Of a DNA stretch of 64,000 nucleotides, positions 12,301-53,996 are shown piece after piece. This stretch comes from Bispira polyomma. Its lineage: Eukaryota. Location: positions 46,128,001 to 46,192,000 of the forward strand of contig OZ287750.1 in the NCBI GenBank assembly GCA_965649765.1, given 5' to 3'. The notes beneath the pieces were generated by a model. That model was not told where the DNA came from and searched no databases. It saw nothing but the letters and a program-made list of their open reading frames with translations. How positions within the stretch are numbered: position 1 is the first letter of the stretch; every line of letters starts with the position of its first letter. Position numbers and translations under genes: made by a program.

Positions 12301-14194
12301 TTTTGCCACTGTGGTTCAGTGGGTAACACACTCGTCTAAGAATGCCAAGGACCTGGGTTTTGATCCCAGCCCTGGGACTCCCAGGTACAAGCAGATATAT
12401 AGTGACTCGGATAACCCTTGAAAATGGCTGACGTCTGTCATTGAGTCTTATTCCCAGTGAATTTTCCCTGGGAAAATAGTCATCCTTAAGCCTATATGTT
12501 TTCAGTTAAGAGCATGACAGTTACTGGTGCCATCTGACTATAATTTAACAGTCTAGAAAAGGTTAATTAGTGCTTTGAATTCCAATGTGGTGACATTTGA
12601 ATAACTTTGAATAAGAACACAAATAGATCATGACCTGTATAACATTAAACACACCATTTTAGGTTGTTGCACCTTGGATCAAACATTTCTACATGTCAGG
12701 GACGGGAGACTACTATGTAATACCTGGGTATGTACTGTCATACTACAGCAGTTGTAGGGGCCACGGTGGCTTAGTGGTTAGCAAGCATTGCGCTTCACAA
12801 TCACTGGTCTCTCACCTCTGGGCCGCGTGACTTCGAATCCCGTCGATGCCTATATGGGAAAGGTGGTAGTTCCTTACTGTGGGCCACTGGTTTCTCTGCA
12901 GAACCTTGACCGATTGTATGCAGTGTTTCCTACAGCGTTTCAAAGAACCCGTCCCAATATAACATACTAAAAGGTACTAGAGTGGATGTTAAATATCCAA
13001 ATTCAAATTCAAAACTGCAGCAGTTGTGTCTGCTTATGTCTCCCAAACCTAGCAAACCACACTGTATTACTTTCTTTACTTTAAAAAAAAATATTTTAAA
13101 TGCTTCTGATACTGATGGCCATCACCTAATAGCAACTGATCTTTTGGCCTAGCTAGTGAAAATAAAAATGTGGGATGCTTGGGAAACCCATATATTTTAA
13201 AGATATTTTTTTATTCTTTACAAAATTTCCTACTGAAATGACACACGTGACAAAATAACAGTCTCCTGTTGGGTGTCATTTTGGAAACATAGGCTTAGAA
13301 TATACTAGCATACATAGATTAGACTCTTAACTGATTAAGGCTTAGATTGATTGAGTGCTTCGTTGATAGTACTACACTGGGAAACATAAAAAGTAGCTCA
13401 TTATTTATATTGCAAAATGAAAAGATTCTCAGAAATATATTTTAACCCAGATAAATATAGTTTTTGAATTAAAATATAAAAAATACTCTTTGTGAACAAT
13501 TAAATGTAGCCTATTTAATTTGTATAACATTCTCCGGTAATAATTCGACCCACAACATCACTCCTAACCCACACTTTGTACTTGCAAGTTGTATGTGTCA
13601 TTCAGCATTTGTATTGCTTATATTTACAAACATTTGAATAATATATCACCCTTAGTGTTCTTCAGGTACAATTAATCCACTTTCTAAATGGTTGAAATAC
13701 AATTATTTGCTGTAATTGACACAGTTTTGCTGCCTACCTAACTACCTTTGTAATAAGTATGCAACCTTATTGGTTTATGGAATAACAAACTTTTATTATA
13801 GGAGTTTCTATTATCCAAACATTCCGTTCTATAAACCCACAATTCATATTTTCCCCCATTGTTTTATACCTAGTTTCCTTTTTCTTTTGTTACGAAACCT
13901 TTATTTATGTGAACAAAATCCTGCCCTCCTAACATGCTGCAATAATACACAATACAACATTCCTTCTATTGACTACATAAATAGCTTTTTTAAAGATTTA
14001 TCTCTGTTTTCACATTGATTTGGAGGACTTTTTAGACTGACTACAGTGACACTGGGAGGGACGTATTACTATGACGATTGGTCAGAGAAACCAACAAAGG
14101 CAGACAGAGAGGACATCTGGCGGGGATGTTGTCAACTAGTGCCAAGTCTCAAGGTAACACCAGCTGCCACCGTATTCTCCCCCCCCCCCCCCCA

Positions 14195-15035: not shown

Positions 15036-16752
15036 TGAGTTTCTTAATTACTGATCGACAACATGCTGCAAGGTAGCAACATTGAACTCTTTGTGTAAAC
15101 AGTGTGAGGTCAGGGGTGGTATTCTCAAACAAGCCAAAATTACACTGACTTATCTTAGTGTAGTTTTTCACTTCAGAAAGTTTAACTTTATTGTTCATCC
15201 CTGACCTTATTTTGAACTTTGACAGATCAGAGTAATGACCTTGACCTAAAAATCTATATGTTACTAGTGACATTAGAGTAAATACCTTGACCTAAAACAA
15301 TACTAATAACACAGCTGTACTAAGACCTGAGACTAAGATGGACGTGACGGTTTAAACCAAATAAAACCATAGGTTTTAACTGTGGTCGGCAAAAACCTGT
15401 CAACCCTGCTAAGACTTAGTGTCATTAAAATGTTACTATACTAAAATGTTTTTAATTTTTTGGAGTCTAACTGTAATTGTCATTTTTTTTTTCTTAGACA
15501 GAGTCAAGATCAGTATGTATTTTGGTCCTTTATGTATGTGCATATATGTTTGTATACCAGGTATATTGTAATGTATTGTACTGTATATGTATGAAAAAAA
15601 GAAAATATAAAGAAATATAAAGAGTGTTAAAGTGATAAAAGAATTTAATATATTATATTTATGGATGCAATACATGTTGACAAGTTAAAGTGTAAATACC
15701 TCACTCAATTAAACCCTATATATACACATGCCACCTGTAGAAAATGTAAGCATAACCAGGTGTATCTAAGACCATATAACGTATTTCTGTGAAATGCTTT
15801 TACACAGATTGTAAACTAAACCTAAAAAATGATGTGAGACGATGTGATTACATGACCACTATAGAAGTGTCGGTTTGGTTAAGTCACACTGGAGTACATA
15901 ATTAGTAGTTGACTGGTGTATTGTATGAGTACACAAATGTTAAGTTTTAACAAACACAATTGTAAAACACGAATACATGTACTTTCATATAACGTTGAGT
16001 AAAAACTATAAAGTCTAAACAGTAAAATATATGATTATGACTAAATGATTACATGAACACCATGAAGACTGTTGGGTTTTAAGATAACATGAACCACCTA
16101 TGTGAGGAGAGTTCATGTAAGTTTAAATGTGTTTAATGAGTACAATGCCAAATCTTTGCCACTTTATATATCAGTAACTACTGACCCAAACTTCATATTT
16201 ACTACAGATATACAGGGTTAAGACATTTTCCTCTTTAATTATAAATTAGGTGAGGCTTTCACACTGTGGCTGTCACTTACTGCATGTGTACTATGTGTAC
16301 ACGTACTGGGGGAAATCAATGTATTCATTTAACACAAATACCAGTTTTATATCTTTAGCCTACTATTTGATTTTCAGATAATCTGATATTTCACTGGTAT
16401 ATTTAACTCGCTCTTTTTATTTCTGTGTTCAGCACTGGCGATATATTATTGGATACTCTATATATTTACTTCCTCGTTTTATTATTTATACTAAATAACA
16501 TTTCTCTCCTGATTTTCTGAAAACACAATAGTTGTATATCCTTTTTAAGCTTCCTTCTTTTAAGTCCCTTCGTGAATACAGGCCCAGGATATTTTTAGAA
16601 AACCAGAAGGGTAATTTTTCTTTAATTAAATAATAAAACTTAGAAATAAATATTCACTGCAGAATAATATCCTACATATAATGGAAAAACAAGCAGTTGA
16701 ATATAAAGAGTGTAAAGTTACCACAGCAGTAACTTTAATAACAATTCTTTAA

Positions 16753-16965
16753 TTTTTTATTAATTGGGATATTTAACGTCCACTCTAGTACCTGTTTAGG
16801 TTATATTTGGATGGGTAGTCGAAAACGCTGTATACAGTTTATCAAGATTCTGCACTGAAACCACAGTAAGGAACTACCACCTTTCCCACATAGCCATTGA
16901 CTGGAGTCGAACCTACGCCATTCGATCCCAGAGGTGAGAGACCAGTGACTGCCACTGCGGCCCCC
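16753..16965 (-). mobile_element. SINE family A, copy 4 (internally deleted)
   Basis: Perfect 13-bp TSD AACAATTCTTTAA at 16740-16752 and 16966-16978. Confidence 0.85.
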
Positions 16966-17700: not shown

Positions 17701-18725
17701 CAACCAGAGGTGTTTTAACACTGTAGAAATTATCAGAATTAAACTCCTGTTTTGTAGAAAAAACAGAGGTTTCTTTAAAAGGAAACATCTGTTTTAAACA
17801 ATAGGTATCACTCAATTTTGAAGAAACTCCCAATTCTCCTATACATAATCCCTTTTTAGAAACAGTACGAGCATCAAGGTCACCAATAATAACGAACAAG
17901 TCCATCAAAAAGTTACGATTTAGGTACCCTTATCTTTGATCGGGTCCAGATGAATGTGTTTATATTTAAACTTCAAGGCAGGGGGCTACATAATCTACTT
18001 ATACCATTCAATATATACACGAAAAGATTGCATCTACAGATTTCTAATTTTTTAATATTTTATTAATATGGTAAGTTATTGTCCGGTAAAGTGTAAATTA
18101 AAACTGAATCTATTCATCTAGTTGTAATTGTTCCCGTTGGTCTACTCGGAAGGCAGTAAGATTTGATAATAAAACGGCCACATATAAATAATGTTTACAC
18201 CTCACAAACATAGTAAACATTTTCTATAGAATCATAAGAATGGACTAGTTCCAGCAGCTTATTTTTCCTAACTTTTACTAAATCTATGTTTTATGCTTAT
18301 TTAATGCTATATATTTGTTGTATTTTATAGACAATGACTCACGTCACAAAATAGTTTGTCACAATGGCTGTATGTCGTTTTAATCATGCACAATATAGCG
18401 CATGACATTGTCCTTATAATGCGTGGGTTAAATATCTGGATCTTTGCAGAAAACATAACTGCTACTTTATTGAAATAATCACACGAGGAAGTAAATAAAT
18501 GTTATCAAATAATATCCTAATGACGAAACAACCATTTAAATATAAGGAGTTGGAAGCTACCACAGTATTTGAAAATAAGAGAGAATAGCTTAAATGAAGA
18601 GAAATTACAGAAACCTATCCTAGTATATAGTGTGTATGACTTTAAAATAATTAAATCATTTAAGAATTTAAAAAACTAGAAGAACGCATGTTTAAAGAGA
18701 CTATTAGAAAAATAAATAATGCAAC

Positions 18726-21530
18726 ATGTCTGTTGAAACAGTGTTTGAAAACTTGTACAGAGCCTGTTGTAAAGGTGAGGAAGAAACAGCCATAAGTCTC
18801 TTAGACCAGAAGGATATAGACATTGTACACATTCTCAACACAAGACATCAAGATAATGGTACCACAGTGCTGCACATGGCTGCAGATGAGGGGCTCACTA
18901 AAGTGGTCCAAGAGGTGCTGAACAAGGGATGTCCGATAGACTTAGTGGATGATGAGGGCTTAAATGTATTGCATTGGGCTCTGCGGAAAGGAAAGAGTAC
19001 GGACATGGTTCAAGCACTTCTGGAAAGAGAAGACTGCTTCCCTTTGTATGACCAAAGTGCCACAGAAGAAGGATTCACACCATTAATGTGTGGGCTGAAG
19101 AACGGCAGTGGGGCGGCAGCAAAGGCCTTGCTTAAATGTAATGGCCAACATCCGCTGTGGAGTGTGGATAGAAATGAAAAGAAAACCTTCAGGATTGATT
19201 TCAAAAGCTATATGGTATCAAAACAAAATATTTATATTGAGGCTATGAAGATTGATGATCTAGAACTAATTACGTTATTGCTTGAAAAAGATCAGCATTG
19301 GAAAGAAGGGGTAGTTATGGAACAGGATGGAAAAAATGGACTGATGATAGCTGCAGAAAAAAAACTATGGAAGAATGTTGAAGTTGTTCTGGTGCATGGT
19401 GATCTGAGTCTGAGTCAATCTGATCTTGAAACAGTGCTGGTCAAAGTGGTCAGAGATGGTAACCACAATCTACTTGATATGATTCTGACCAAGGAATTCC
19501 AAAAAGGTACACTATGCCTCAGAACAAGACTGATACATGCCGCTCTGGCCTCGCCAAAAAGGGACACAAAGATTGTCGAGATGCTGATTTGAAACAAAGT
19601 GGATATTACAGGTGTTAATAAAAATGGCCTTAACATAGTGCATATCATAGCTTCCAATGGTGATGACAAAATTTTGTCTGTTGTAAGAGGTAATTTGCCT
19701 CAAAAAAGTTTTAACAAACAGTTCCAAGACTTACTGTCACAGAAATGTCCAGTATATAAAACTATTCTATGTTTTGGAGATATCAAACAAACTTACGAAC
19801 TGATGCAGTGCAATGCTTTACATGTAGCAACCGTAAATCTGCATTTTACTGTTTTGAGTAAACTTCTGCTGTATAGGGCTGATCCACATGACACAGATGA
19901 TAGTGATCGTTCACCTTTACAGCTTGTGAAAGAACTGAATGATGATTTTGGAAGTCTAACCCCAGATTTCAGTCGTAAATTTGACGAAATATATGAAGCT
20001 CTGCTTAAGGCAGGCAAAGAGGTGCCAGATACCAATACACAAAAAAAACTTATGGGAAACTTAGAAACGGCTGTGTTAGACAGCTACACAGAAATTAAAA
20101 CAAATTTGGTGTCTATCAAAGACAAGATTGATTCTATCGAGGGGTCTACAAACCAGTCTCGTGAGGTTATGCAACAAGTCACTGAAACAGTAACCTCATT
20201 GGAACAAAATTTGGAAGCAACATCTGTGAAAACCACGAAGGCTTTAGAAGATGTGAAAGAGGAACTTGTCTTACTCAAGTGCAGTATGTCTACTGAAGAA
20301 ATGGTATATTATGAACTTATACAACAAATAGCAAAGAAACTTGGACAAAGTCCAAGAAAAAAAGATCAAAAACCTTTATGGGAACAATTGGCAGATGAGT
20401 TACTTACGGTTGCTGCTTGTCCAACAAAAATACGCTCTAGCATCATGGAGAAAATAAAGACAGAAAATAACTCTGACCAAGAATGTGCTTTGCAGTTTCT
20501 TGTGATCTGGAAATCATTGATTTGTCAAGGGAAGATCCAGCTGCCTGTAATTCAGGAAGTACTGAATAAACTGAATGTTGAATTTTCCGATTTGACTAGC
20601 CTCAAAACACAACTTGCTGAGTATTGGCAAAGATCTGAATCAGGTATGTAATCACTGAATGTCAAACTGTAAAATACACACAAAGCCTGTTTTTGTAAAT
20701 AATCAGTATCACGGTGGTCACAATCAAAAGTGTTCATGTCATATATGCGTTAATTATTGTTATATTTTTATGTCATATATGTCATATATGCGTTAATTAT
20801 TGCTATATATTTATATTATTACTATTTTTACCCTTAGGTTGTCGCCAAGCAGTTAAAGGCAATTGTTAGTCCCAGGACCTGTGTCTGTCGGCAAGCAGTT
20901 AACATGCCAAAAATATTATGTGTTTTCAGTTTCTCACAAGGGAACATTGTTAGTGCAGCAGACGTCCCTGTTTAAAAAATTATACGTACTGTTGGTATGT
21001 AATGCTGGAAGTGGTTAGTGGTGTCAGTTTTAGTGACTTCAGCTATGTGTCACCTGTTGCTGATAATTTTCATTATATGTTGAAACTGTACAATTTCATC
21101 CAATACACTAATGACCTCATCTCCCTATTACTTGAGTATTCAGGTTTTTGTCTTAAATGTAAGATTTTGTTTTTCCAAACAAGTTCCCCTCCCAAGTGGT
21201 TTAGATAAGAGAGGCTATACTGCAATAATTTATTTTGTAGTTGATCTCAGTGACAGACAACTTAGTGACATTGCCAAAATGATTGGGAAGGAATGGATTG
21301 AACTGGGACTGGAGCTGGACTTGGACAAACCAGAGCTGGAAAAGATTGATGCAGACAATAGTCGCCTGCATGGTAAAATATTGGAGATGCTCTTGACATG
21401 GAGAAGAAAAGAGGCAGGATACTCAGATGTGAAAATGGTGCACCTGTGCAAGGCATTAAAGAAAATAGGCAGAGAAGATATAGCACATGGAATTTCTACA
21501 AAAAGTAGTAAACTTTGCAATATTGTATGA
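18726..21530 (+). pseudogene. Ankyrin-repeat (about 10) + coiled-coil + tandem death-domain protein; exons 18726-20643 and 21241-21530; single in-frame TGA at 19590-19592
   Basis: ANK motifs (GTTVLHMAA, GLNVLHWAL, GFTPLMCG, NALHVA). ORFs 18726 and 19599 are in the same frame. Phase-1 donor TCAG|GTATGT joins phase-1 acceptor TTTGTAG|TT. Death domain IAKMIGKEWIELGLEL...EMLLTWRRKE; an earlier death-like domain at IAKKLG...FLVIWK. Confidence 0.8.
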
Positions 21531-28132: not shown

Positions 28133-29139
28133 AAAATGTTTAGTTCATTGGTTACTTTTACCTTTTATGTAGTACTACAATAGTGTTCTGACTTTTAGTA
28201 CAGCAACAATGCTCTGACACAACAAATGCACTTTGACTGGAATATCTGCTACTTAAACTTTTGTGACTACTTCTAAGATTATTTATAAAGTCTATATTTA
28301 TAAGCTTACTTTTTAACTTGAGAGTAGTGTGTCAATTATATGATATAGTAAATGTCATTTTACCTATATTCACATGCAACACAGTAAAACACCACTAATC
28401 AACATGTTTACATATTCCTTAAGTTCATTTCCTGTTTACTCCATGTTAAATCTTGTATTACTGCCCACCTAAATTTATATCCATCAGCATCCAAAAAACT
28501 ACATTATGGGAAAGACAATTTTGTACTCCTTTATTGTCTATACATTTCCCTCTTTCCAATTATATGTTTACATCACTATTTGCTGTTTTGATTATATAGA
28601 AATTTATTATATTATTTGTTAGCTTCAACTTTTTGTACCTAACTTTTTTTCATAATGTCCTCATAAGAGTATCACTTATAATGTGAGGTGGCTTTAGCCA
28701 GCATGCTCAGTCGGGGGTGAACCTTAAAACTCCACCACCATAGCCCTAGAAAGACTACTTTAAGAAAAGCATTTTGTTTTGACAACAAGTGTAATATTAT
28801 TCTTAATTGGCTAAAACACTCTCTACAAATCTCATTAGTTGACCTTGTGGGTCACTGCTTGTGTTGTGGGTATTTTCCTCACTTTGAAATTACAAACTGA
28901 GGTATCAACAGCTATAGTCTGCTTAAATTGGACGCCATTGTACTATTTTAACATTTACAAATTTTTTAGTTGTGATACTGGACTATTTTATCATTTATTT
29001 GACTATTTAAGTGTTTTATGATTGATACACACATTCATTTGTACTGGTAAGTGTTTTATAGTGACAGTGCAGGAGACAAGTTATATTGAACAATATAGTT
29101 TATCACGGTCCGGTCCGTCAATGTATATGTTGCTGTATT

Positions 29140-29630
29140 TTATATACAAAGAAATGAACAATATTGAATGTATTTATACGTGGTAATGGGTATACAGTAA
29201 CAGTACCACAGGAGAGACATATAATATTGATTTTATACGAGGATTATTCTATGCACAAAGAAAGACCAATATTAAATGTACATTAGCAGTACCATGAGAG
29301 AGTAAATATTATATTGATTTTATGACTTTATACGGACGATCATTCTAGGCACAAAGAAAATACAAACAAAACGATATTGAATGTATTTATACGTGGTAAT
29401 CAGTATACAGTAACATTAACACAGGAGAGACATATAATATTGATTTTATACGAGGATCATTCTATGCACAAAGGAAATAATAGTAAATGTACATTAGCAG
29501 TACCACGAGAGAGTGAATATAATATTGATTTTATGACTTTATAAGGATGATCATTCTAAACACAGAGAAAAGAACAATATTGAATGTACAGTGGCAGTAC
29601 CACGAGAGAGAATATAATATTGATTTTAGT
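29140..29630. repeat. Degenerate tandem repeat (about 100-120-bp subunits, about 5 copies) upstream of gag
   Basis: Recurrent AATATTGAATGTA..CAGTACCAC..GAGAG..ATAATATTGATTTTAT..GATCATTCTA.GCACAAAG. Confidence 0.8.
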
Positions 29631-30051
29631 AGATTGGCCATGCTAGGGCAATATAAGTTTTAAAATCGGTGAGAGATATACACACAGAGCAACAAGAGAC
29701 ATGAATATAAATTTAGCATAGATATATCATGCAAAGTGCAGTGGATTCTGTGAATAATAAACTTGGCAACCATTGACTGATTTCCTGACGTGGAGAGTGT
29801 GCTTCTGAGGATCTGTGCTCTGCTACATGCATTGTTCTGCTAGTTTTTACTGTCTTTCAGGGACGTAACTTTTACCTAATCACGAATGTGTCAAAATTCT
29901 TGGAAAAACAAGCAAAACAAACAAATGGTAACAGAGCACAGTTATTTGTCATTCTTAATTGTTTCAGAAAACTGACTTAGACAATATATATACATATAAA
30001 TACGGCCAATAAATTGAGCCAGTGAAAAAAAAAAAAAAAAAAAAAATTGTA

Positions 30052-31191
30052 ATGCCTAGTGTGAAGTGTACCGGCTGTGGAGGTAGACATCCGAGACCTG
30101 TGGGAAGACGATGCCTAGTGTTCAAACGGGCACAACGCGAGGCCGAGCAGGATGAATGGATTGACGACAGCGAGATTACTCAGGAAGAGGACCCGGATAC
30201 AGGGCGATTACAGCTTCCGATACAGCTTCAACTCCAGTCACAGGGTGAGTCGCTTCCAACACCGGAAGTTACACAGAATGAGGTGAACTTAACAATATTG
30301 TCAGAACTGAAAAAACTCAATAGTAGATTAGAGTTGGTTGAAAACAACCACACGGTGAACAGTAAAAGTGTAAGTGAAAGTACAAGTAAAAGTACAGCAG
30401 TAGTGACCTCTAGTCCTAATATTAGCAGGGCTCAACTTAGTCAGGCGTGTAGTGGAGCAAGTGCCCCTGATGGTGATGCCATCATACCCAGTCTCAATGT
30501 GATTAAATCCAATGATATACAAGTTCAGGTAGATCAAAGGCTGCGTGAGCTTGCCCTACTCAATGCCCAGGATCCTTCAGGTAAAAATCAGATCAAATCC
30601 CAAAGGGGTGTTTCAGTAGATGTTTTTGTTAAAAAGCGTGTCAAGTGGCCTCACCAGCATGTACTGGGAGGCTCCACAAAAGATAGAATAACGTACAACC
30701 AGCTCACATTTTCTCAGTTTGTATTGGGTTTCACTCGTAGTATTCAAGAAGAAAGTAATGCTCAAACAAAAGATCAAATGTTAGATTATTTATGTAATCT
30801 GTTAGAAGATGTCCAGGACTTTTCTTGGCAAGCTGCCAAGAATAGCCATGCAATACTCCTTTGTCAAATGGAGGAAGGTAAGATAGAATGGTCTGACACC
30901 AACAAGATTGACAGGGTACGTAGGGCACATGCCCAGAGACATGTAGTTGGTAGTAACACAGGTAGTAATTACTCCAAATCACAAACCAAAGATAGGAAAG
31001 CAGGCACACCTTGTTTTAGATTTCAAAAGGGGACATGCAAATTTACCAAGGATCATGAAATGGGGAGCAAAAACTTCATACATGTGTGTGAGTCCTGCTT
31101 TGCTATGGGTAAGTTGTTTAACCATCCTGACAAAGAGTGTAGGAACAAAAAGTATAATTCAAAAAACGGGGGAGGGCCAGCACCAAATTAG
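30052..31191 (+). CDS. Gag-like ORF1 of Ngaro-like element 2
   Basis: ATG at 30052 (MPSVKC). N-terminal CxxCxxxHx7C, coiled coil, W..AKNSHAILL core and C-terminal Cys/His fingers, all homologous to gag of element 3. Confidence 0.85.
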   Translation: MPSVKCTGCGGRHPRPVGRRCLVFKRAQREAEQDEWIDDSEITQEEDPDTGRLQLPIQLQLQSQGESLPTPEVTQNEVNLTILSELKKLNSRLELVENNHTVNSKSVSESTSKSTAVVTSSPNISRAQLSQACSGASAPDGDAIIPSLNVIKSNDIQVQVDQRLRELALLNAQDPSGKNQIKSQRGVSVDVFVKKRVKWPHQHVLGGSTKDRITYNQLTFSQFVLGFTRSIQEESNAQTKDQMLDYLCNLLEDVQDFSWQAAKNSHAILLCQMEEGKIEWSDTNKIDRVRRAHAQRHVVGSNTGSNYSKSQTKDRKAGTPCFRFQKGTCKFTKDHEMGSKNFIHVCESCFAMGKLFNHPDKECRNKKYNSKNGGGPAPN

Positions 31192-34020
31192 GCGCTGGCA
31201 AAAATGGTATAAAATATTGTAATGGACAGAGACACAGGTCAGATAGTGTATATAATCATGTAGAAGGTAGTAATACTGAAGTCAAGTATAGACAGTATGG
31301 TGATAGAATTGTGTATAGTACAGTCATACCTAATGTAAAAGTATTGCATAATAATCAGTTTTCAGGTGATTGGAGAGAAGCATATAGAAATGCAGGTCTA
31401 AAGCGCACATATGCACAGTCCCTGAAGCAGGGCACACGTGGTAAGGGTGTTGTAGTCAGCCAGCAGCAAGCTCGGTGTGGACGAAACTCTCCCACTAATA
31501 GAACAGCAAATGCCCTCAAAGTTACCAACCATAGCATATCTAAATCAGCTGTTTCAAATGGCACTAGCATTGACAACAACAAATGTCCAAAAAGGGGTGA
31601 TATTACAAAACCCCAAAGCTCCATGGCCAACAGTCACAATAAAACCCTCATTAGAGACAAACAGGTCCCACTGGCTAATCGTTTCACTCCCCTATTGTCG
31701 GCCCTGGAACAAGACGATGGTCATAACGAAGAAAGTGGGGAAAGGGGGGGATGTGATTTTCTCAAAAGTAGCATAAATAATGACACTTACGGACAGATTG
31801 GCAGTGCCATAAAAAATCAACCAGCTTGTGTCACAACTCCATTTTTAGCACATAAAAGGCGCAACATGTATGACAATGGGGATAAGGATAAAGGGAAAAC
31901 CACTTCTATTCAAGGGGTGGAAAACAACTTCACACTTCCACAAAGTGACAATGTTAGCAAAAGTACGGGTGTTTGTAATATGGGTAGTGGGGAGACTCGT
32001 ACTCCAGGAAATAAAACCAATATTGTCATAGACAGCATTGCATGGGGTAATAGTACGGTTGCTTCAAGTGAATGCAACAAACAATGTCATGGTAATGGAA
32101 CCGCACAAGGCAAGGACCAAAAAGTAGTATGGCAGGGAAAATTAACACCACATGCCCCAGTATTTATCCCTAACAAAGTACTTTCCCCGGTTGACTTGCT
32201 AAACGTAGATGGCAAATACGAATTGCAATTCTTGAGTAAAACCAACACAAAAGATATTGCTCAGCTAGTGCAATGTAAAAAATTATATGACACTTGTATG
32301 TTTCAAAACCCTCAAGGCTTTGGCTTTATACCATTGAGTGATTTTGTTAGAACCCAGCATCAGGTTAGTGTCCATACTGAGGATATACATGATCCCATAC
32401 TCTTACATGAAATGGTTAAGGCAACGGGGAAGTACAATTTTCAGCAGGCACGTTATCCTGTCAAATCCCAACTAAAGGTTGATAACTGGGAAAGGTACTT
32501 AGAGCATTACTGGGATTCACAGTTGATTGATTTCATCAAATTTGGATTCCCCCTAGGCTTTGATAGGAATGTTGAACTTCAGTGTGACTTAAACAATCAC
32601 ACATCAGCTACCCAATATCCAGCACATGTAGATACATATCTAAATGAAGAATGTGGTTTTAATGCAATTATAGGTCCCTTTGCCACCAGTCCTATTACAC
32701 AGCTTCACTGCTCACCATTTATGACTCGGGAAAAACCAGGATCAGTAAATCGCAGGGTAATCATAGATCTGAGTTGGCCAGAAGGTGGTAGTGTAAATGG
32801 AAATGAAGGACTCCTACTTGGGTACTAAATTTATCCTCACATTTCCTTCAATTGATAATATAGTAGAGCAAGTAAAGTCCTTTGGAAAGGGCTCACATAT
32901 ATACAAGATAGATATTTCTAGGGCATTTAGGCATGTCAAGATAGATCCCAAAGACTATGATTTGTTAGGCCTCTACTGGAAAGACTTCTATATTGACACA
33001 TGTCTTCCCTTCGGGTCAAGGAATGGTAGCCAGATCTTTCAGAGAATTAGTGATGGAGTAAGGTATATCATGAGTAAAAATAACCACAAGATTATCAATT
33101 ATATTGATGATTTAATAGGCTGTGGTGTACCCAGCAAAGCTAAGGCAGCATATGACTTCCTGTACCAATTACTAGGTGAGTTAGGTCTTACTATCAGTGC
33201 AAAAAAGTTAGTTCCACCAAGTACACAATGCAAATGTTTAGGAGTACTAATTGACACTGTACAAGGTACCATTTCTATTCCTGTAGACAAACTAGAAATC
33301 ATAGTCAAAACTTGTGCCACTTGGCAGGATTTTGAGGTAACCACAAAAAGAAAACTGCAGTCATTATTAGGTTCTCTCTTATATGTCGCAAAATGCTGCA
33401 AGCCAGCTCGCATTTTCCTGAACAGAATGTTGACTACTCTTAGAGCTGCTAGTAATCTGAAGCGTATTGTACTAGATGAAGAATTCCACAGGGATGTCAA
33501 CTGGTTTCAGTCTTTTCTAGCTCAGTACAACGGTGTCACCTTTTTTAACCACAAGCCGGTGGCTGCAGTCATTGAATTAGATGCATGTTTAACTGGGGTA
33601 GGGGCCAGGTATGGGGATAGGTTATACACTCTACCAATTCCCCAGTCCATGCAAGGCATCGGAATAGTCAGACTAGAGATGGTAAATATTGTAGTGGCTT
33701 TGAAGGTGTGGGGTAGTTACTGGAAAGACAGCAAAGTGGTTATCCGTTGTGACAATAGTGCAGTAGTATCAGTGTTAAACACAGGTAGGACTCGAGACAA
33801 ATACCTTGCAGCTTGTGCAAGGAATGTATTTCTCCTTACAGCTAGGCACAACATAGACTTAAAAGTAGTGCACATTTTAGGCATTAATAATGCAGTGGCT
33901 GATACACTATCCAGGTGGAAGGGCTCCAAATCTCAGTGGCAAATAATAAACAGGCATGTTAATGATCCTGTTTGGTGTGACCTTAAGCAAGAGGCCTTCC
34001 ACCTGGATTGGTCCATATAG
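31161..34020 (+). pseudogene. pol (RT + RNase H) of element 2, entered in the -1 frame from gag; one mutational frameshift at about 32805
   Basis: The -1 frame is open from 31161 into ORF 31311-32828; ORF 32797-34020 has KIDISRAFR, LPFG, NYIDD, DAC, CDN, ADTLSR. Confidence 0.88.
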
Positions 34021-35017
34021 ATTAAACATTATTGTAGGTACTACTCCAGTCATGAAGGCCCTGACCACTGGCGCCATTGGGAGGCTCACAGGAGCATTCA
34101 GGCCCTCTACACAACGAGCCTATACGGCTATGTTTAGAAACTTCTTAAGGTTTTGCTGCTTCACAGCTATTTCAGTGCATAGAATTACAGTCCATGTCTT
34201 ATTGGCATTCATGGAATTCTTGGCCTACAATAACACCTCTCCATCTCAGGTGGCCAATTACATGGCAGCTATTAAGTCCAGTTTATCAGTATATGGCCTA
34301 CCAGTTCATGTGTTTTCGGATAATAGGATCAAATTGTTCCAAAAGTCATTGTTACTGAACAGACCACTCACTGTGAAAATGAAAGGCATATTCCAAGTGC
34401 AGCACTTGGAAAAAATTGTCCATTTGTGTGACACTATGTTTATGGGTCAGGTGTATAAATCCATTTATTTGTTAGCATTTTTTGCTTTCTTTCGTATTTC
34501 AAATCTAGTTCCACATGCAAATGAACCATTTGATCCATCGGTTCACCTGGCCAGAGGAGACATCTTTTTTGCTCCACCAGGACTGCAAGTACTACTGAAA
34601 TGGTCAAAGACCATGCAATCAAAGAATAAGGTTCAGCTAATTAAAGTTCCCTCACTAGGTGGGTCTCCAATATATCCTGTGAGAGCAGTAAAAAATGTAT
34701 TGTCCCTTACACCTGGGGGAAAAAATCACCAGTTATTCCAGATTAAGAAAGCAGGTGGTTGGAGTCCACTAAATGATAACATGGTTAGGCAACATTTGAA
34801 GAAAGTGGTATTGGCTTTAGGGCTAGATCCTTCTACTCACCCCTTTCATACCTTCAGGCGTTCAGGTACCACCTTGGTATTCAACTCTAACGTTCCAATA
34901 CAACAGATCCAAAAACATGGTACCTGGACGTCTGATTGCGTCTGGAAATATATTGTAGACACCCAGGACTCAGCTACCCAGGTGGCCACTACCTTTCAAA
35001 ATCTACTTTCTCAATAA
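33956..35017 (+). CDS. Tyrosine recombinase of element 2 (intact ORF)
   Basis: FFRISN, LKWSKT, HTFRR, HGTW, WKY. Confidence 0.9.
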   Translation: MLMILFGVTLSKRPSTWIGPYRLNIIVGTTPVMKALTTGAIGRLTGAFRPSTQRAYTAMFRNFLRFCCFTAISVHRITVHVLLAFMEFLAYNNTSPSQVANYMAAIKSSLSVYGLPVHVFSDNRIKLFQKSLLLNRPLTVKMKGIFQVQHLEKIVHLCDTMFMGQVYKSIYLLAFFAFFRISNLVPHANEPFDPSVHLARGDIFFAPPGLQVLLKWSKTMQSKNKVQLIKVPSLGGSPIYPVRAVKNVLSLTPGGKNHQLFQIKKAGGWSPLNDNMVRQHLKKVVLALGLDPSTHPFHTFRRSGTTLVFNSNVPIQQIQKHGTWTSDCVWKYIVDTQDSATQVATTFQNLLSQ

Positions 35018-37097
35018 TACTACCACTAGTTTGGTTGTTTGGTGGTTATTTATTTATGTTATACTACTACGGTCTAATATATCTTAAATTTTACATGTAT
35101 AACTATTAATTCATAATGTACTACATAAGTACAGCTCTGGTTAGGTAACCAGAATAATTGTATACTAAAAATAATAGAACTTATATATATACAGTATACT
35201 AAATATTAAGAACTAAAAATGCATGTATCGGCACCAGGTTCATCTTATTCAAATCAAACATCTTAAAATCAAATTTCAAATTTAATTCATATCAAAAACT
35301 TTCAAAATCAAACATTTTAAATCTTAACTAATTATATATATAATAATTCATAAAATTGGGAACCTGTTGGCTTTAAGTTAAGGTTCCCTCATACCTATGA
35401 GGTCACCTTAGCTTAAATAGAATAAGTAATATGGTGTGTAACTGTAACATAGTTAATTATTAAATATACTCACAATTGGCAACAGGTACCTTGCATTTAT
35501 TCATTAAACTCAAAAATTTTACAATTTCAATTAGCTAAGTAATTCCTAATTCCCATTCTCAAAACCCATGGTACCTGGTGCCCTTGTTAGGGTGACCTTA
35601 GTCATTTAAGGTTACCCTACAAATGTTTTGTGTTGTACATGAAATGTAGTAGTAGTAAAATAAAATTTTATACCCGCAATACTCAGTGTACTCACTGGTC
35701 ACTCAAGGTCACCCATAGACTGGGAGAGATATTACTTAAGTCAGAGCAGGATAAACTCTAAATTTGCTCCGGGTAGCTGGAGCCCATAGACTGTGTGGAT
35801 CCCCCCCCTCCCCTGAGTTCACATCTAGTAGGCCAGGGTTGAATAGGAGCTCTGGGAGGTGATTAGGTGTCCAAGGTCTAGGGCTCCTGCCCCGGGTGAA
35901 GTTAAAGCAGACCGTAACAACCCATGCAGAAGACAGAGATAAAAGATCAACCTAATGTAAAAATTCAAACACAAGTTAGGCTAGTTCTATGACTAGACTG
36001 ATGGGGAACACAACATTAATTTATGCCTCATTTATGGGTAGACGTACAAATTTATACGGAACAAATGGAGGAATAATGTACTAATATATATATATATGAA
36101 GTACTAGATGTTCTATGCTCTATGTTATGTTTAAGGGCTAGGTCTAATTGTTTCAACCTGATGTTGGACTTTATTTGATATGAAGTAACGGTAAAAGTAT
36201 TTTATATTTTATTGGGGATTTGCTTACATGATTACTTATTGTATTATTGTTATGTATTTTATTATGTGTTAGTAGCCTATTGGGGCCTTAACATTTCACT
36301 TATCGTAAAAATCTAAGCAATTTTATATTATGTTAATGTCAATTGTGAAATATATATATGCTAACATGTACAAAATAAATACTCAAATGAAATCTTTTAT
36401 TACCTTCTTCAATCTCATAAATAAAATCCTTCATGGCCTTTTAAGAAATTCAACCTGACCTTTAGGAAATATAACCTTGATGAGACTTTTAAAGCAAATG
36501 TATGCGCTGACAGAGGGCAACCATTTTTACGTGGTCATCCGAGCCACTATGTATACATCTGTAACTGACAGCCCCAGACTGGAGATACAATCCAGGTCAT
36601 CTATGTTCCCTGAGGCATTAGTGATAGATAAAACATTTCTACCAAACAGAGATGGTCACTCCTGAAATCTTGCCTTGACAAGAAAGATGCCCGCCAACCA
36701 GCCCAACATGGGGATAGAAATAACTGCTAGTCATTAATTAACAAGAAGGCTGTTTGACCGCTAGCGGTCCCATATCTTGGCATGCCTGTATGGTAAGCAT
36801 TTCCACAAACTGTGTTACATATCTTAAGATGCTAGAGAACAATCCAACACACAAAAATAAAAATAAAATATAACCTCCTGACTTAAAATTATAGCTAGCT
36901 AATGTTTTTCTTTGTATAAACAACCAAATTACCGGAAAAACTCTTTCAATAATTTGTTTGTCATATAATTTTGCTTTAAAACCTTATAAAAATGATTTAA
37001 TTTGTGGGTCATAATATAATATTTTGAGGGTAAACTACAGCAGCCGTATTCACTATCAGACTTAAGCTAAGTCTTAGGCTTAAATCTAGCACAAAAG

Positions 37098-41637: not shown

Positions 41638-44394
41638 ATGTCTGTTGAAACAGTGTTTGAAAACTTGTAGTACAGAGCCTGTTGTAATGGTGAGGAAGAA
41701 ACAGCCATAAGACATTCTCAACATAAGACACAAAGATAATGGTACCACAGTGCTGCACACAGTGGATGCAGATGAGGGGCTCAGCAAAGTAGTCCCAAAG
41801 GTACTGCTCAAGGGATTTCCGATAGACTTAGTGGACGATCAGGGCCTAAATGTATTGCATTGGGCTCTGCAGAAAAAAAAGAGTACGAACATGGTTCGAG
41901 CACTTCTGGAAAGCGAACACTGTTTCCCTTTGTATGACCAAAGTGCTAAGGAAAAAGGATTTACACCGTTGATCTGTGGGCTGAAGAACAGCAGTGGGGA
42001 GGCAGCAAAGGCCTTGCTTATATGTGATGGCCAACATGCTCTGTGGAGTGTGGATACAAAAGAAAAGCAAACCTTCAGGATTGATTTCGAAAGCTATATG
42101 GCATCAAAGCAAAATATTTATGTTGAGGCTATGAAGATTAATGATCCAGAACTAATTAAGTTATTGCTAGAAAAAGATCAGCATTGGAGAGAAGGGGTAG
42201 TTAGGGGAACATAATGGAAAAAATGGACTGATGATAGCTGCGGAACAAAAACTATGGAAGAATGTTGAAGTTGTTCTGATGCATGGTGATCTGAGTCTGA
42301 GTCAATCTGATCTTGAATCAGTACTGGTCGAAGTGGTCAGAGACGGTAACCACAATATACTTGATAAGATTCTGACCAAAGAATTCAAAAAAGGTACACC
42401 AAGCCTCAGTACAAGATTGATACATGTGGCTCTGACCTCACCAAAGAGGGACACAAAGATTGTACAGATGCTTACTCAAAATGGAATGGATATTAAAGGT
42501 GTTAATGAAAATGGCCTTAACATAGTGCACGTCATAGCTTCCAATGGCGATGACAACATTTTGTCTGTTGTTGGAGGTAATTTGCCTCAAAAAAGTTTGA
42601 ACAAAAAGTTCCAAGACTTACTGTCACAGAAATGTCCAGTATATGACTGATAGTTCTCTGTTTTGGAGATCTCACACAGCCTTACAAACAGAAGCAGTGC
42701 AATACTTTACATATAGCAACCGTAAATATACATTTTACTGTTCTGAGTAAACTTCTGCTGTATATGGCTGATCTACATGACATAGATGATAGCGATCGTT
42801 CACCTTTACAGCTTGTGAAAGAACTGAATGAAAACTTTGGAAGTCTAACCCCAGATTACAGTCATAAATTTGACGAAATATATGAAGCTCTACTTAAGGC
42901 AGGCAAAGAGGTGCCAGATACCAATATACAAAAAAAAACTCATGGAAAACTTAGAAAAGGTTATATTAGCAGAAATGCAAACAGATGTGGTGGCAATCAA
43001 AGAAAAGATTGAAACTATTGAGGTGACCACAAAGCAGTCTCGTGAGGTCATAAAACAAGTCACTTAAACTGTAACCTTATTGGAACAAAATTTGAAAGCA
43101 ACATCTGTAGAAACCAAGATCGCTTTAGAAGATGTGAAAGAGGAACTTGTCTTACTCAAGTGCAGTGTGTCTACTGAAGAAATAGTATATTATGAACTTA
43201 TACATAGCAAAGGAAGTTGGACGAAGTCAAAGAGGAGAAGATGATAAACCTTTATGAGAACAATTGGCAGATGAGTTACTTACAGTTGCTGATTGTCCAA
43301 CAGAAATATGTTCTACCAGTAAACAGAGATAATAAGTCTAACCAAGAATGTGCTTTGCAGTTACTTGTGATCTGGAAATCATTGATTTGTCAAGGGAAGA
43401 TCCAGCTGCCTGTCATTCAGGCAGTACTGAAGAAACTGAATGTTGAAATTCCCGATTTGACTAGCCTCAAAACACAAATTGCTGAGTATTGGCAAAGATC
43501 TAAATCAGGTATGTAACAATGAATGTCAAACTGTAAAATACACACAAAGCCTGTTTTTGTAAAAAATTAGTATCATGGTGAACAAAATCTAAAATTGTTC
43601 ATGTCATGTTTGTTATTGTTTTAAATTATATTTAACACGTTCGACCCCTAGGTTGTCGCCGAGCAGTTGAAGGCAATTGTTAGTCCCAGGACCTGTGTCT
43701 GTTGGCAAGCAGATAACACACCAAATATATTATTTGTCTTCAGTTTCTAACAATAAAACATTGTTAGTGCAGCAGACGTCCCTATTTAAAAATTACAAGT
43801 ACGGTCGTTATGTGATGCCCGAAGTAGTGTGGTGTCTGTTTTAGTGACCTAGCTATGTGTCACCTGTTGTTTTGGTTATCACAGTAATTAATCTGGTGAA
43901 ATGTGAATTTCATTATATGGTTAAACTGCATGATTTTATCTAATACACTACTGACCTCAATTGAATAGTTTTTGAATATTCAGCTTTTTTTAAATCTCCA
44001 TATCACTTTCCAAATGATCAATTTTGTTTTTCCAAACAAGTAATTCTCCCAAGCTGTTTAGATAAGAGAATCTTTACTGCAATCACGTATTTTGTAGTTG
44101 ACCTCAGTGACAGAAAACTTGTGACATTGCCAGAATGATTGGGAAGGAATGGATGGAACTTGGACTGGAGCTGGACTGGAGCTGGACTTGGACAAACCAG
44201 AGCTGGAAAAGGTTGATGCAGACAATAGTCACATGCATGATAAAATACTGGAGATGCTCTTGACATGGAGAAGAAAAGAGGCAGGATACTCAGATGTAAA
44301 AATGGTGCATCTGTGCAAGGCATTAACGAAAATAGGCAGAGCAGATATAACGCGTGGAATTTCTACAAAAAGTAAAATATGCAATATTGTATAA
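41638..44394 (+). pseudogene. Second ankyrin/coiled-coil/death-domain paralog with many frameshifts and stops, inside a segmental duplication (about 41130-44730 vs about 17910-21920)
   Basis: Colinear with 18726-21530 including intron and flanks; ORF pieces at 41750, 42231, 42764, 42870, 43217 and 44149. Confidence 0.88.
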
Positions 44395-45430
44395 GTTAAT
44401 GTGCATGGCAAAAGATGAATTAAGATATATTGTTGTGAAACAGAATATATGGTATATTTATTTCAATAGTTTATGTTATATATGATGTCACGATGGTTAA
44501 TTTTAATTCAAGATTTATTTTTTGGCAGTTAAATAAAGTAGCAAGTAGCTCAGTTGTTCAGAATATTCTGATTATATATTATAATATCTGTAATAACTAC
44601 TGTAATGTTGAACTCCTATTTGGAATCATGTTTTTAGCCATGTTTGATACAGAATGTATGGTATATTCATTAAATAAGTTGATGTTAATTATGTTTCAAT
44701 GGTTACGTCTACTTTTTAAAGTAAATTGAAGGATAATGTTTAAGAAAATCTTGAATTATATCAATTAGCTTAGCTGAAGGATAATGTTTAACAAAATCTT
44801 GATTTTTATCAAGTGGCTTAGACTTACATTTAACTGATGCTGCTTAGACCGTAAACCTAATTAATGTAATTGTAGACTACCTTTTGGATATATATTAAAT
44901 CATATATTTATTCTGGGATTTCATGTTACATATTATATTCACGTGGTTTGGTTCAATTATTTAATTTTGTTAATTTTAATTTGACTTATAATTTTTTGTG
45001 TTTTGCTGTTGAACATATAATTTGTCATTTTAGCCACTGTTTAACCCTTTAATATAGCATTGAAAATGCTGAAGGGCAAACAATATAAATCCCCTGCTGA
45101 ATATCTGTACAAAAAATCAAGTTGATATGAGTAGAAATGCAGAAGGAAAAATGTTTTTGTTTATGGACATTAGTGCAAGTTGTAAATGAAATTAGATAAT
45201 AGTTTGTATTCCAAATTATGTTCATCTGGTATTTAAAGCACTTTTGAAAAACCTTTTCTTGACTAAACAACTATAGTCAACCAGTGCCAAGAAAGGCTAG
45301 ACTAGACCAGACTAGAAGATGGTCAAAATCTCTAATGCTATTAAGCCTGTCACTGGAGACCGAGGACCACCATCTCAGCCAATATGTATCTATCTGTAAC
45401 TGACAGCCCCAGACTGCACATACAACCCAG

Positions 45431-48109: not shown

Positions 48110-49575
48110 AGATTAAAAGATAAAGATATAGCTTACCTTAATCTAAAACTGCAAGTGCAGTCCTCAAAACATGTGTAGTGGTACAAGAGTGATGTAATTA
48201 ACGTCAAGCTCTAGTCGAAGATGTGGTGTAGTCCAAATGTCCAGCATACACTTTCTTTATGATGCCACAACAAACGCAAACAGGACGGGACAGGCTTAAC
48301 TACTGATCAGGAGGCCTGTAAAGAAGAGAGAACACACATAAGTCATCAGCATACACTGAAGATAAAAACAATTTGCAAATGCATACACAGACAAACTGAC
48401 ACTTTATTGGAGCAAGAATAAAACTTGAGCCAAGCTCGTGGAAGACATAAGTTCTAGTCTAGAGGTTAGTGTATAACATAATAGTTAAAAGTACAGTGAA
48501 AAGTTGTAAGGTGTCCAAAAACACTTACATCCCGTGTCTACTAAGTAATATCTTTAAGATAAAAGTTTGTTAAGGTGTTGTCAGACTTCCAGAAGCAAAC
48601 CCCTAGGATCTGGTCAAGTGAGATTCCCCCTTAAAGGCCAATGAGTCAGCCATAGCTCTCACATCATGAGCTGTAACCTGACAAAGGTTATGAATTTCTG
48701 AATCCGCACTTTCATAAGCCAGAATGATGGTCTGTTTCAACCTTGATGAAATAGTAGATCTCTGAGTATATTTAGCAAAACTGTCCCTATGAGATATAAA
48801 AAGCAAGTTCTTTCCTGTTCTGAGACCCTAAGTCCGATTGAGGCAGGAGCTCTCACTGGGCATATGGTGATGTCCTCAGCCAATGACTCATCCACAAATG
48901 GCCTTGAGAAGCCAACTGGTACAGTAAGATACAGTAAGCTCAGACCAATGGTTTATGTTTGAGTGAAGAGAAGGTCCATGCATCAATTTCAGCTATTCTC
49001 TTCCCTGGGACGAGGGGGGGGGGGGTGGGGAGCGGTGGCCTAGTGGTTAGCGAACACTGGCCTCTCACCTCTGGGATCAGCTTGCATGGGTTCGCCCCCC
49101 TTTGATGCCTATGTGGGAAAGGTGGTAGTTCCTTACTGTGGTTTCAGTGCAGAATCTTGATCAACTCTATGCAATGTTTCCTCCAGCGTTTCCAACTACC
49201 CATGCCAATATAACCTAAACAGGTACTAGAGTGGAGGTTAAATATCCCAATTCAAATTTTAAAAAAACCCTGGGACCAGGGCTCTAAGAAATAAGGTTTT
49301 GAAGGGAACTAGTTTCAAAGAAGCCTCTTTTTGGTTCAAATGGAGGCTTGGTCTTGGTGAAAGCTAAAAAGTACTAAAGTCCCGATACAAACTGTGTCGA
49401 GAAGTCTATTCAGGTCGAGACTTTTTGAAGACTTCTAACCTTTTTGAGCCCAAGTGATATGCAATGGCTGTGCGATAACCAGCTAAAGTTGCAGCTTTAA
49501 GATTTCGCTGTTGAAATAGGAACAGTAAGAAATCTGCAATTTGGGCTATAGTAGCTGTGGAGCCGACCACCGTAT
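48110..49575 (-). mobile_element. DIRS1-type retrotransposon remnant: YR region and 3' end
   Basis: IADFLLFLF..LKAATLAGYRTAI, LFIS, AHDVRAMA.SLAF, WKSDNTLTNFYLKD; interrupted by SINE A. Confidence 0.75.
49013..49267 (+). mobile_element. SINE family A, copy 5, inserted in the DIRS1 YR
   Basis: TSD CCCTGGGAC on both sides. Confidence 0.85.
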
Positions 49576-52500
49576 TCTTGGTCTCAGGTCTTGGGGCCTG
49601 CTGAATGTCAAATAATTTCTCAGGATTGGGACTGATTTCTCCTTCACCTACAATGTGCCCTAGAAAATCTACCGTCCTAAACCCTAACTTGCACTTTGTT
49701 GGTTTCATCGTCAATCCTGCAGATTTAACTCTTTCAAACAACTTCCTCAGTTCAATCAAATGCTCCTCCCACTCTATAGTATGAGTCACTGTATCATCTA
49801 TATAGCTCTCCGACTTACTTAATCCCTTCAAAAGGATTCTCATCATCCGGTTAAAAGTGGCTGCTGAATTTACCAGACCAAAAGGCATTCTCAGATAACA
49901 GTATGAACCTTCTGGAGTTACAAAACAAGTCTTGTCTTGACTTGACTTAGCAACAGCGATTTGCCAGTATCCTTTTGACATGTCACATTTGCTTACCCAT
50001 TTGCTGTCTTTTAGTTTGCAAAATATCTGATCTGCCTGCACCATAGGTTCTGTGGAAAATACAGTTAAACGGTTGAGCTTCCGATAATCTGTGCAGAAAC
50101 GGAGTGTTCCATCAGCTTTCCTAACTAGAACAATTGGAGATGCGTATGGGGAATTGCAAGGTTTGATAACATTCATCCTTAGCATCTTTTCAACTTCATT
50201 GTCTACAACACTTTGCATGTGGTAGGGTACTGGGTATGGTTTCAACCTGACTGGTTCATCACTCAACAACTCTATCTCATGTTCAACTAAATTGGTGGAC
50301 CCTGGAAGATCAGAGAATATGTCCCTAAACTCATGAAGTAAATCAAAAACCTGTTGTTCTTGACCCTCTGATAAATCAGGATTCACAATTACATCTTTGT
50401 ATGTTTCGGTTTGCTCAAGACAGTTGAAATGTATCAGCTTATCATCGTCGACGGTTCCCACTTCTGTTTGAGACTCAATAACAGCCATAGATACAACCTG
50501 CAAAAGTGATGATTCAGCAACTACGCTAATCGCACTACCAGTACCTTGGTTACTTGGAAGCTGAAGATATTTTTTTAATAGGTTTGCATGGTAGATTTTT
50601 ACCTTGCCCTTAACCTGGACTCGATAGTCATCACCAATGGCTTCAACTACTTCATAGGGACCTTGCCATTTCACTAAAAGCTTGTTTGATTCAGTGGGCA
50701 ACAACAATAACACTTTGTCCTTCACCTCAAACTTACGTTTCTTGCTTCTCTTATCATGGTGATACTTACCTTTCAGCTGAGCGTTCTCTAATTGACTTTG
50801 AGCTAGCTTACAAGTGTTTTCTAACCTTTCTCTTAAATCCACTATGTACTGATATGTGGTTTTGGTTTCATCTGAGTCAAACTCACCTGACCATAACTCT
50901 TTAAGGATACTCATAGGACCTCTCACCGTTCTTCCATATAAGAGTTCAAACGGGGCAAAACCTGTACTAGCTTGAGGAACCTCTCTATATGCAAAAAGTA
51001 CAGCAGGGAGATACCTATCCCAATCTCGAGGTCGCTCAGAACATAATTTCCGCAACATAGATTTCAACACAAAATGAAACTTTTCCACAAGACCGTTACA
51101 TTGTGGGTGGTAAGGAGTAGTAAGCAATTGCTTAACACTAAGTAGTCTATTCACCTCCTGCATCAACTGTGATGTAAACTGAGAACCTCTGTCACTCAAG
51201 ATCTCACTTGGTATTCCCACTCTGGAAAACATTTCTATAAGGCCTTCTGCAACACGTTCGGTCTCTATGGTGGGGAGAGCAACGGCTTCTGGGTACCTAG
51301 TAGCATAGTCAACCATGGTAAGTATATAGCGATGACCACGCTCAGTGACTGGGGTAAATGGACCAACCAAATCTATTGCTACCCTTTGAAACGGTGTGTC
51401 AATAAGTGGCATTTTATTTAAGGGAACGTGGGATACCCTGCCCTTTGGGGTTGTTCTCTGACATAGATCACAAGATCTACAAAACAAATTAGCATCACTT
51501 TGTAAGCCTGGCCAGAAGAAACTACACATAATTCTGTCTAAGGTTTTCTTCATACCTAAATGACCACTCATCAGAGTTTCATGAGCCAATTTAAGTACCT
51601 TAGTTCTTAACCTTTGGGGCACTAGAAGTTGTTTCCCAGGTTTCTGTCTATTTCTGGGATGAAATTCTCGATATAAGAAACCCTTTTGGACTGAATAGTT
51701 TACTTGGTTGCCACCCCTTATCTTTACAGATTTGTTTTCTGCCGCTAAATCCCACACAGAACTAAGACTTGAATCATTCAACTGCTCTTGTTTAAATTCC
51801 TCAGATGTTAAACCTAAGTCAATCTCAGATGGAACCTTTAATGGACCTATGGGTTTTTTCTCCCTTTCAGTTTGGGCCCTGGTCATTACTGGTACCTTTT
51901 CAGTATTAGTTACCACCTCCTCAGAAGCACTATACCAATCAGGGTTTGGATCATTGACATCTCTAATACCAGGTATATTTCCCAACACTAGCGGGTAGAT
52001 GGGTTTCTCCATAATCATAGCCTCAACTTCACCTACATAGAAAGGAGTGTCTATATGTACTTTGGCAATGGGAAACTTCCTCACAGTCCCGTCAATAAGT
52101 ACACATAAAAAGACCTTCCCTGTAAACTGTTCTGGTTTCACAAGGCTTGATTGCACCACAACACCGGTACAACCACTATCCCTCAAAGTATCTACAGTCA
52201 CATCACTCACTACACCCTTAAATACTGGTAAGTTGTAGTTTTTTGAACCAATACTTTGCTCACAAGCACTAACTATAGTAATGGACTTACCTGAAGCGAG
52301 TTCCAATTGATCACCTGTTATACTCTCAGACAACAAACGCATGATACAAGTTGCTCCCGTTTCCTGCTGTTCAGATTCTGAACTAGCCCCATAGCTTTGT
52401 TTAACTGCACCAGCGGTTTGGATCTTAACTCTACAATCTCTCTTCATATGACCCTTCTTACCACATCTGTAACAGATCTTGTCAAAGACATTGGGTCTTG

Positions 52501-53350: not shown

Positions 53351-53996
53351 AAATAAAGGACACAGACCAAACTACCTGAATTACACAAACTACCAAACAG
53401 ACCACAGCTACAACATTTTTTACAACTACTAGTTACTACTATAGTTCAGTAAACTGCTAAGCTAACCTTGTCTACACATTGGCTTTCTAACCAATACAGT
53501 TATATACCCTTGATACCACAGATTCCACTGGTTTCCTAACCAGTACAATGATATACCCTTGATATCACCAATTAACCTGAAGTCTAATACCTTAGTACCA
53601 CCATCCCATTTACCCCTACTCGAGATGGTAAACCAGATGTATACTAAATAACACTACTTCAGTTAACCAATAAAGTGATATACCCTTGATATCACAAACT
53701 ACCCTGAAGTTGAATATCTTAGTACCACCAGCCCATTTACCCTCACTCGAGATGGTAAACCAGATGTATACTAAATAACACTACTTCAGTTAACCTGTAA
53801 ATCACACAGAAATGCAGCACGCCCCACTACACACCAAAGACTCGAAACAAACTTTTGAACTACCCTGCCCTTTAGGCTTCAACGTTTTAACATCAGCTTG
53901 TACGATAATATCTATAAAAACATCAAACCGACGTGTGAAGGAAAAGCCACATATTATTTCTTCTAAATGAGTTAATCAATTAAACTATCTACAAAT

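Follow-up and report, generated by a model that had tools for sequence, protein, structure and literature searches.

A conserved slippery heptamer and predicted stem-loop point to -1 frameshifting between gag and pol in a clade of Ngaro-like retrotransposons of Bispira polyomma

We analyzed a 64,000-nt stretch of the Bispira polyomma genome (contig OZ287750.1, positions 46,128,001 to 46,192,000, forward strand; hereafter the window, numbered from its first letter), and in it a retrotransposon whose gag and pol genes overlap in different reading frames. Judged by its sequence, this element is a Ngaro-like tyrosine recombinase (YR) retrotransposon of the order DIRS. Its open reading frames (ORFs) follow one another on a single strand as gag, reverse transcriptase (RT)/RNase H and YR, the order that characterizes Ngaro-like elements. 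The features to which we refer are listed here.

28682..28930, + strand: 5' split direct repeat A1, a 94-99% match to both A copies of the sister element L031
30052..31191, + strand: gag ORF of 379 aa; Cys/His motifs of CCCH/CCHC-like type at the C-terminus, where 7 aa follow K371-N372
30578..30586, + strand: predicted phase-1 splice donor CAG/GTAAAA in gag, cut after 30580; a donor-like site lies at the same place in related families
31155..31157, + strand: TAA closing the -1 frame, 5' of the heptamer
31158..34020, + strand: pol, consisting of a variable N-terminal linker, RT and RNase H, in frame -1 with respect to gag
31161..31167, + strand: slippery heptamer A AAA AAC, phased as X XXY YYZ in the gag frame
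31168..31175, + strand: spacer of 8 nt; all 24 family representatives have one of 5-9 nt
31176..31199, + strand: predicted stimulatory stem-loop holding the gag stop; 6 bp, A.C mismatch, 2 bp, 6-nt loop
31209..31211, + strand: pol codon 17, ATA in the window and ATG in 16 of 17 near-identical copies (L002-L017)
33950..35017, + strand: tyrosine recombinase ORF (PF00589 at E 6.5e-6, narrowly under the curated cut-off; also SAM-like domains)
34023..34039, + strand: predicted splice acceptor (phase 1) where YR starts, cut after 34037; found in 60 of 66 alignable loci and 25 of 25 families
35040..35722, + strand: 3' repeat B, from repeat comparison with L031

Pfam recognized only RVT_1 and RNase H-like domains in pol, which ends directly after RNase H; it found no methyltransferase domain downstream of RNase H, and the window Gag matched no Pfam family. 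In the available portions of PMC3783388, PMC4157794 and PMC9210276, Ngaro elements are defined by gag, RT/RNase H and YR genes, by the lack of a methyltransferase, and by split direct repeats in the arrangement A1-ORFs-B1-A2-B2. The complete arrangement was found in sister copies L031 and L087, and in L031 the A repeats (249 nt) match at 98.8% and the B repeats (702 nt) at 98.3%. The window copy carries A1 and a single B, and the A2 and second B of L031 are missing, the copy stopping after one B repeat at 35722. Many solo matches to B (35040-35722) occur across the genome, as expected from B1-B2 recombination. The window pol is disrupted by a frameshift near 32800, which leaves ORFs 31158-32828 and 32797-34020. 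Between families its N-terminal linker ahead of RT (31170-32300, ~350 codons) can hardly be aligned, although it stays open.

At the gag-pol junction the gag frame (31159-31191) reads TCA AAA AAC GGG GGA GGG CCA GCA CCA AAT TAG. Apart from the heptamer at 31161-31167, the gag/pol overlap holds no X XXY YYZ site; it is just 34 nt long because the -1 frame is closed by the upstream TAA. The -1 (pol) frame opens 3 nt ahead of the heptamer and then runs for 556 codons, and the gag TAG (31189-31191) spans the hairpin loop and the 3' arm. Folding of 31168-31207 gave -15.5 kcal/mol (z -3.16; none of 200 shuffles did as well), and folding of 31168-31237 gave a z of -2.28 (4 of 200 shuffles as good); Rfam returned no match at 31050-31350. 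The initial annotation of this DNA had described the heptamer in gag phase, an 8-nt spacer, a hairpin containing the gag stop, and a -1 frame open from there into pol, and our reading of the gag frame agrees with each, adding the A.C mismatch and the point at which the pol frame opens. Set beside canonical -1 programmed ribosomal frameshifting, the junction has a phased heptamer within an ORF overlap and, by predicted folds, a stable 3' structure about 5-9 nt downstream. The -1 ORF has no conserved start of its own at the level of the clade; the window family alone has an ATG at codon 17.

We assessed conservation of the junction through a search with the Gag core, scoring 150 of 7,411 candidates. 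From this search and a further one, 74 loci were chosen, with long open gag frames favored, and they fell into 28 families at 85% DNA identity. By a strict rule the heptamer stood at the gag end in 65 of the 74 loci (L053 was off-junction on inspection) and in 24 of the 28 families. In the families of L056 and L104 it was present in copies with a broken gag, bringing the total to 26 of 28; the remaining families are single copies, one with the heptamer deleted and the hairpin kept (L067), the other with a large deletion over the site (L101). A second set of 30 loci, at least three of them shared with the first, had the heptamer 3 nt before the stop in 26 cases, and the hairpin accompanied it in 25 of these. 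Among 17 copies of the window family, the sequence was AAAAAAC in 15 and AAAAAAT in two.

The codons that make up the heptamer encode Lys-Asn (KN) in Gag. Among 46 uninterrupted gag ORFs, ascertained via protein, 38 ended with A AAA AAC, three with A AAA AAT, one with A AAA AGC and one with G AAA AAC, and three were without KN. Codon use alone would yield A AAA AAC in 7.4% of cases, compared with the 38/46 observed, and KN pairs elsewhere in gag were written with mixed codons (A AAA AAC in 5 of 34). The third base of the preceding, variable codon was also fixed, with A before AAA in 42 of 43 Lys-Asn or Lys-Ser ends. The excess of A AAA AAC over codon use and over other gag KN pairs therefore places the constraint at the nucleotide level.

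The predicted structure was likewise specific to the junction. Over the 36 nt after the junction heptamer the median folding energy was -15.7 kcal/mol, and 22 of 24 representatives reached -10 or lower; at 170 other AAAAAAC or AAAAAAT sites in the same loci, the median was -3.6 kcal/mol and only 3 reached that value. Within 44 nt, a stem was predicted in all 24 representatives, beginning 5-9 nt downstream and built from several unrelated stem sequences. A 7-bp stem is common to the fifteen families that could be aligned, and one of its pairs shows a compensatory change from G-C to C-G. A clade-wide H-type pseudoknot found no support: over 24 families the mean longest helix between loop and downstream sequence was 4.25, versus 3.93 after shuffling, and it rose above the shuffle level in a few long-loop families only. 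With loop-to-downstream pairing at the shuffle level, the stimulator appears closer to a stem-loop type than to the pseudoknot of mouse mammary tumor virus (MMTV). The canonical signal that had been proposed here with MMTV as its example is borne out in heptamer, phase and predicted 3' structure, but not in the kind of stimulator, which looks like a plain stem-loop.

An RT tree was built from loci of this genome only, with the short rows L039, L068, L081, L082 and L180 dropped. Its 20 members of the A AAA AAC/hairpin type form one branch (98/100), and the counts above therefore describe one inherited, long-kept signal and not independent origins. Because a single, very long gypsy branch roots the tree, we claim no order of events from it. 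Outside the genome, 97 Gag homologs included 42 with an intact C-terminal Cys/His motif, and in 38 of these 42 KN lay at most 12 residues from the end, against a KN background of 5.8%; in 29 of the 38 it stood one residue before the end. The KN ending is missing from many Gags near 27-32% identity. The initial annotation had let its proposal stand or fall with conservation of the heptamer and frame in other families, and that conservation was found in the genome and, as the KN ending, in the outside Gags. A metagenome search for related loci produced a single candidate (L105), an unrelated GC-rich gene; a search of viral contigs for related loci found none, and ESM Atlas returned only unnamed clusters with weak recognition.

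From the heptamer, its phase, the hairpin and their conservation, we infer a slip, its rate and its products: pol in the clade of the window element is very probably made as Gag-Pol by programmed -1 ribosomal frameshifting at A AAA AAC. On unspliced RNA, translation would for most ribosomes end at the gag stop and yield the 379-aa Gag. In a minority of ribosomes, held up by the stem-loop 5-9 nt downstream, tRNA-Lys and tRNA-Asn would move back by one base and translation would carry on from 31167 in the pol frame; an unbroken copy would in this way yield a fusion of Gag, RT and RNase H ~1,320 aa long. Slippage would fix the Gag:RT ratio, and the gag stop, 0-3 nt past the heptamer in many families, may impose an extra pause. 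No protease domain was detected, so the fusion may stay uncut.

The recombinase would be made apart, from a spliced RNA fusing Gag codons 1-176 to YR. The predicted donor lies just before the gag KSxRG motif, and the YR frame relative to pol varies among families (0, +1, -1), with stops often preceding YR; on these grounds a pol-to-YR frameshift was rejected for this clade. The conserved donor and acceptor, together with the variable YR frame, support a predicted spliced Gag(N)-YR as a third product. Three contig sets compared with 28600-35800 contained no joint at the predicted splice, a result that, the contigs being of unrecorded kind, counts neither for nor against it. A retrovirus-like Gag-Pol from a YR retrotransposon, as originally suggested for this locus, gains support from the conservation of heptamer, frame and hairpin. 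The accompanying idea of three Gag-headed proteins from one transcript would hold at the level of the primary transcript, but the predicted products would need two mRNAs, one unspliced and the other spliced.

Pol could instead be translated separately from an internal AUG, by reinitiation after the gag stop or from a subgenomic RNA, with the heptamer incidental. In 16 of the 17 window-family copies a pol-frame ATG does lie 18 nt past the gag stop. Among representatives, however, the first pol Met shifts between codon 17 and codon 367 while heptamer and hairpin stay constant, and in unselected copies of the second locus set it falls at codon 50-382. The window copy has its first pol-frame ATG at codon 156 (31623); the earlier statement that pol has no early ATG is correct for this copy and across the clade, but not for the window family. 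In some families the first Met comes only after hundreds of codons without a stop, in the -1 frame alone (e.g. 367 and 332 codons, the other frames holding 26/37 and 10/41 stops), although the representatives were picked for the longest open frame, which inflates such statistics and tells against our interpretation. An internal AUG would also leave the choice of A AAA AAC codons unexplained, and we regard this route as improbable.

Slightly less probable still is that pol is reached by splicing the gag donor onto a second acceptor at the pol start. The phase-1 donor in gag is conserved, as such splicing would need, but in-frame acceptors scoring at least 8 were found in 0 of 24 representatives, and all 6 hits were out of frame. 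The scan used a weight matrix from 25 YR acceptors and covered positions -60 to, at the furthest, +900 relative to the heptamer; weak acceptors may escape this matrix, and the range was shorter where the frame closed early. We give least credence to a reading in which Lys-Asn is a protein motif of the Gag end, the hairpin serves packaging or reverse transcription, and Gag-Pol arises by polymerase slippage in the A6 run: the outside homologs are known as protein KN only, and decayed copies (L041, L057, L079, L104) have an upstream indel fusing the gag and pol frames, but the nucleotide constraint, reaching into the third base of the preceding codon, the mixed codons of other gag KN dipeptides, and a hairpin held at the ribosomal distance of 5-9 nt all speak against it. 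Stop-codon readthrough was rejected for the window's Ngaro-like element, where the 0 frame closes again 5 codons past the gag stop.

Several further observations weigh against frameshifting as the route to pol. The window hairpin is only modest in strength, and a related group (L171, L176-L180, L183) retains the heptamer without a nearby hairpin. Covariation is thin, at one of seven stem pairs in the 15 families, and RNAalifold gave no consensus structure over all 24 families, because stem lengths differ. The outside homologs were compared as protein only; among 148 further representatives (50% clustering), 68 had the motif and only 37 of these ended in KN, two of them spuriously. The families share ancestry, and the conservation counts are not independent events. 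A codon-position and indel test for selection on the pol linker gave a weak third-position excess from noisy alignments. Lastly, 16 of 17 window-family copies have an ATG at pol codon 17.

To judge from their junctions, sister lineages in this genome probably reach pol in other ways, by a forward slip or by reading through a stop codon. When a Gag lacking KN was used for the search, gag ended CGR GTT stop in 22 of the 27 loci that could be scored, and all three stop codons (TAG, TGA and TAA) occurred. Of 20 longer loci, 11 had the GTT-stop junction; in 9 of the 11 the RT ORF begins in the +1 frame, 17-71 nt ahead of the gag stop. This sister Ngaro-like lineage, with gag end (C/A)GR GTT stop and pol in +1 (L107-L135, L167-L170, L172-L175, L181, L182, L184, L185; G000), is one branch of the RT tree (92/85). 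In the related group mentioned above, A AAA AAC lies 18-21 nt ahead of the gag stop, and L186, whose pol is in the -1 frame, carries C CCA AAA. Within this genome, the heptamer survey of Ngaro gag ends envisaged in the initial annotation finds heptamer and frame throughout the clade, but not universally, since sister lineages have pol in +1 or in frame.

The window's first YR element provides the in-frame case. Its gag and pol share a frame and are separated by one TAG (20-22; downstream frame 23-3068). The junction CAC TAG GAC (AAC in one copy) was present in 20 of 20 copies examined (L187-L206), and the same frame stayed open for at least 864 nt past the TAG in 19 of the 20, which suggests that this TAG is a candidate for readthrough. 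The family is young and numbers at least 40 copies; in the window copy the frame is broken near 250. Taking these lineages together, we lean towards the view that Ngaro elements run a full retrovirus-style programme (Gag, recoded Gag-Pol, spliced Gag(N)-recombinase) whose recoding module has been swapped within one genome between -1, +1 GUU-stop and UAG readthrough.

The window holds other features besides these elements. An ankyrin-repeat gene region is present as two diverged copies (~88-93% identical; 18720-20651 and ~41700-44400), 22.9 kb apart, the first broken by a TAA at 19590-19592. A decayed gypsy-type element (49406-53371, - strand) has an unusual domain order, with integrase upstream of RT. 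A SINE-like repeat is dispersed in both orientations (6689-6948, 12756-13013, 49038-49267, 59698-59958, 7844-8199, 16745-16947).

The frameshift mechanism proposed here is canonical; it has been suggested before for Ngaro, but we found no paper that names this signal. A AAA AAC counts among the shiftiest, efficient heptamers in the accessible part of PMC5009743, where 28 of 51 animal retroelements have pol in -1, many with heptamer sites; 'DIRS' and 'tyrosine recombinase' had 0 matches in 300,000 of that paper's 449,034 characters. Animal long terminal repeat (LTR) retrotransposons with a -1 gag-pol arrangement are LTR/integrase elements, unlike the YR element of the window. The portion of PMC3835772 at hand gives a typical spacer of 6-9 nt and lists A AAA AAC in MMTV, intracisternal A-particle (IAP), bovine leukemia virus (BLV), human T-cell leukemia virus (HTLV), bovine immunodeficiency virus (BIV), equine infectious anemia virus (EIAV) and astroviruses. 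Retroviral gag-pro and astrovirus ORF1a/1b sites share with our junction the heptamer, its phase, a 5-9 nt spacer, a 3' structure and a polymerase in -1. Unlike these sites, the Ngaro-like gag stop lies inside the spacer or hairpin and no protease domain is detected, and where MMTV has an H-type pseudoknot the Ngaro-like clade has, by prediction, a plain stem-loop. The sister +1 lineage resembles the closterovirid GUU_stop_C site as described in the available text of PMC10053543; this is a resemblance only, as the base after the sister-lineage stop is usually T and sometimes C.

Poulter and Butler (2015), as quoted in the accessible part of PMC13003380, thought that the Ngaro YR ORF is probably reached by programmed frameshifts (-1 overlap). 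Their suggestion concerns the YR ORF, and the variable YR frame in the window clade argues against a frameshift from pol to YR. That work, along with Goodwin and Poulter's of 2004, is said also to cover the gag-to-RT overlap. A gag-pol slippery site or stimulator is not named in the portions available of PMC3783388, PMC8547959, PMC6681497, PMC3266345, PMC9210276, PMC7192593, PMC4157794 and bioRxiv 10.1101/2022.06.16.496473. Nor did a gag-pol slippery site appear among the matches listed, partial texts included, for the literature on DIRS-order elements, a scope that lay outside Repbase reports and supplements.

Arguments on how YR retrotransposons express their downstream ORFs have so far drawn mainly on the overlaps between ORFs. 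Kept over a deep clade, the heptamer and stem amount to a 45-nt cassette that is directly testable and from which a fusion of Gag with RT and a fixed Gag:RT ratio are predicted. Behind this one slippery site the families offer a naturally varied set of stems, and the junction supplies an annotation rule for the start of pol. Together with the splice and with the +1 and readthrough lineages, the signal would mean, if true, that these elements reached retroviral solutions and switch between them.

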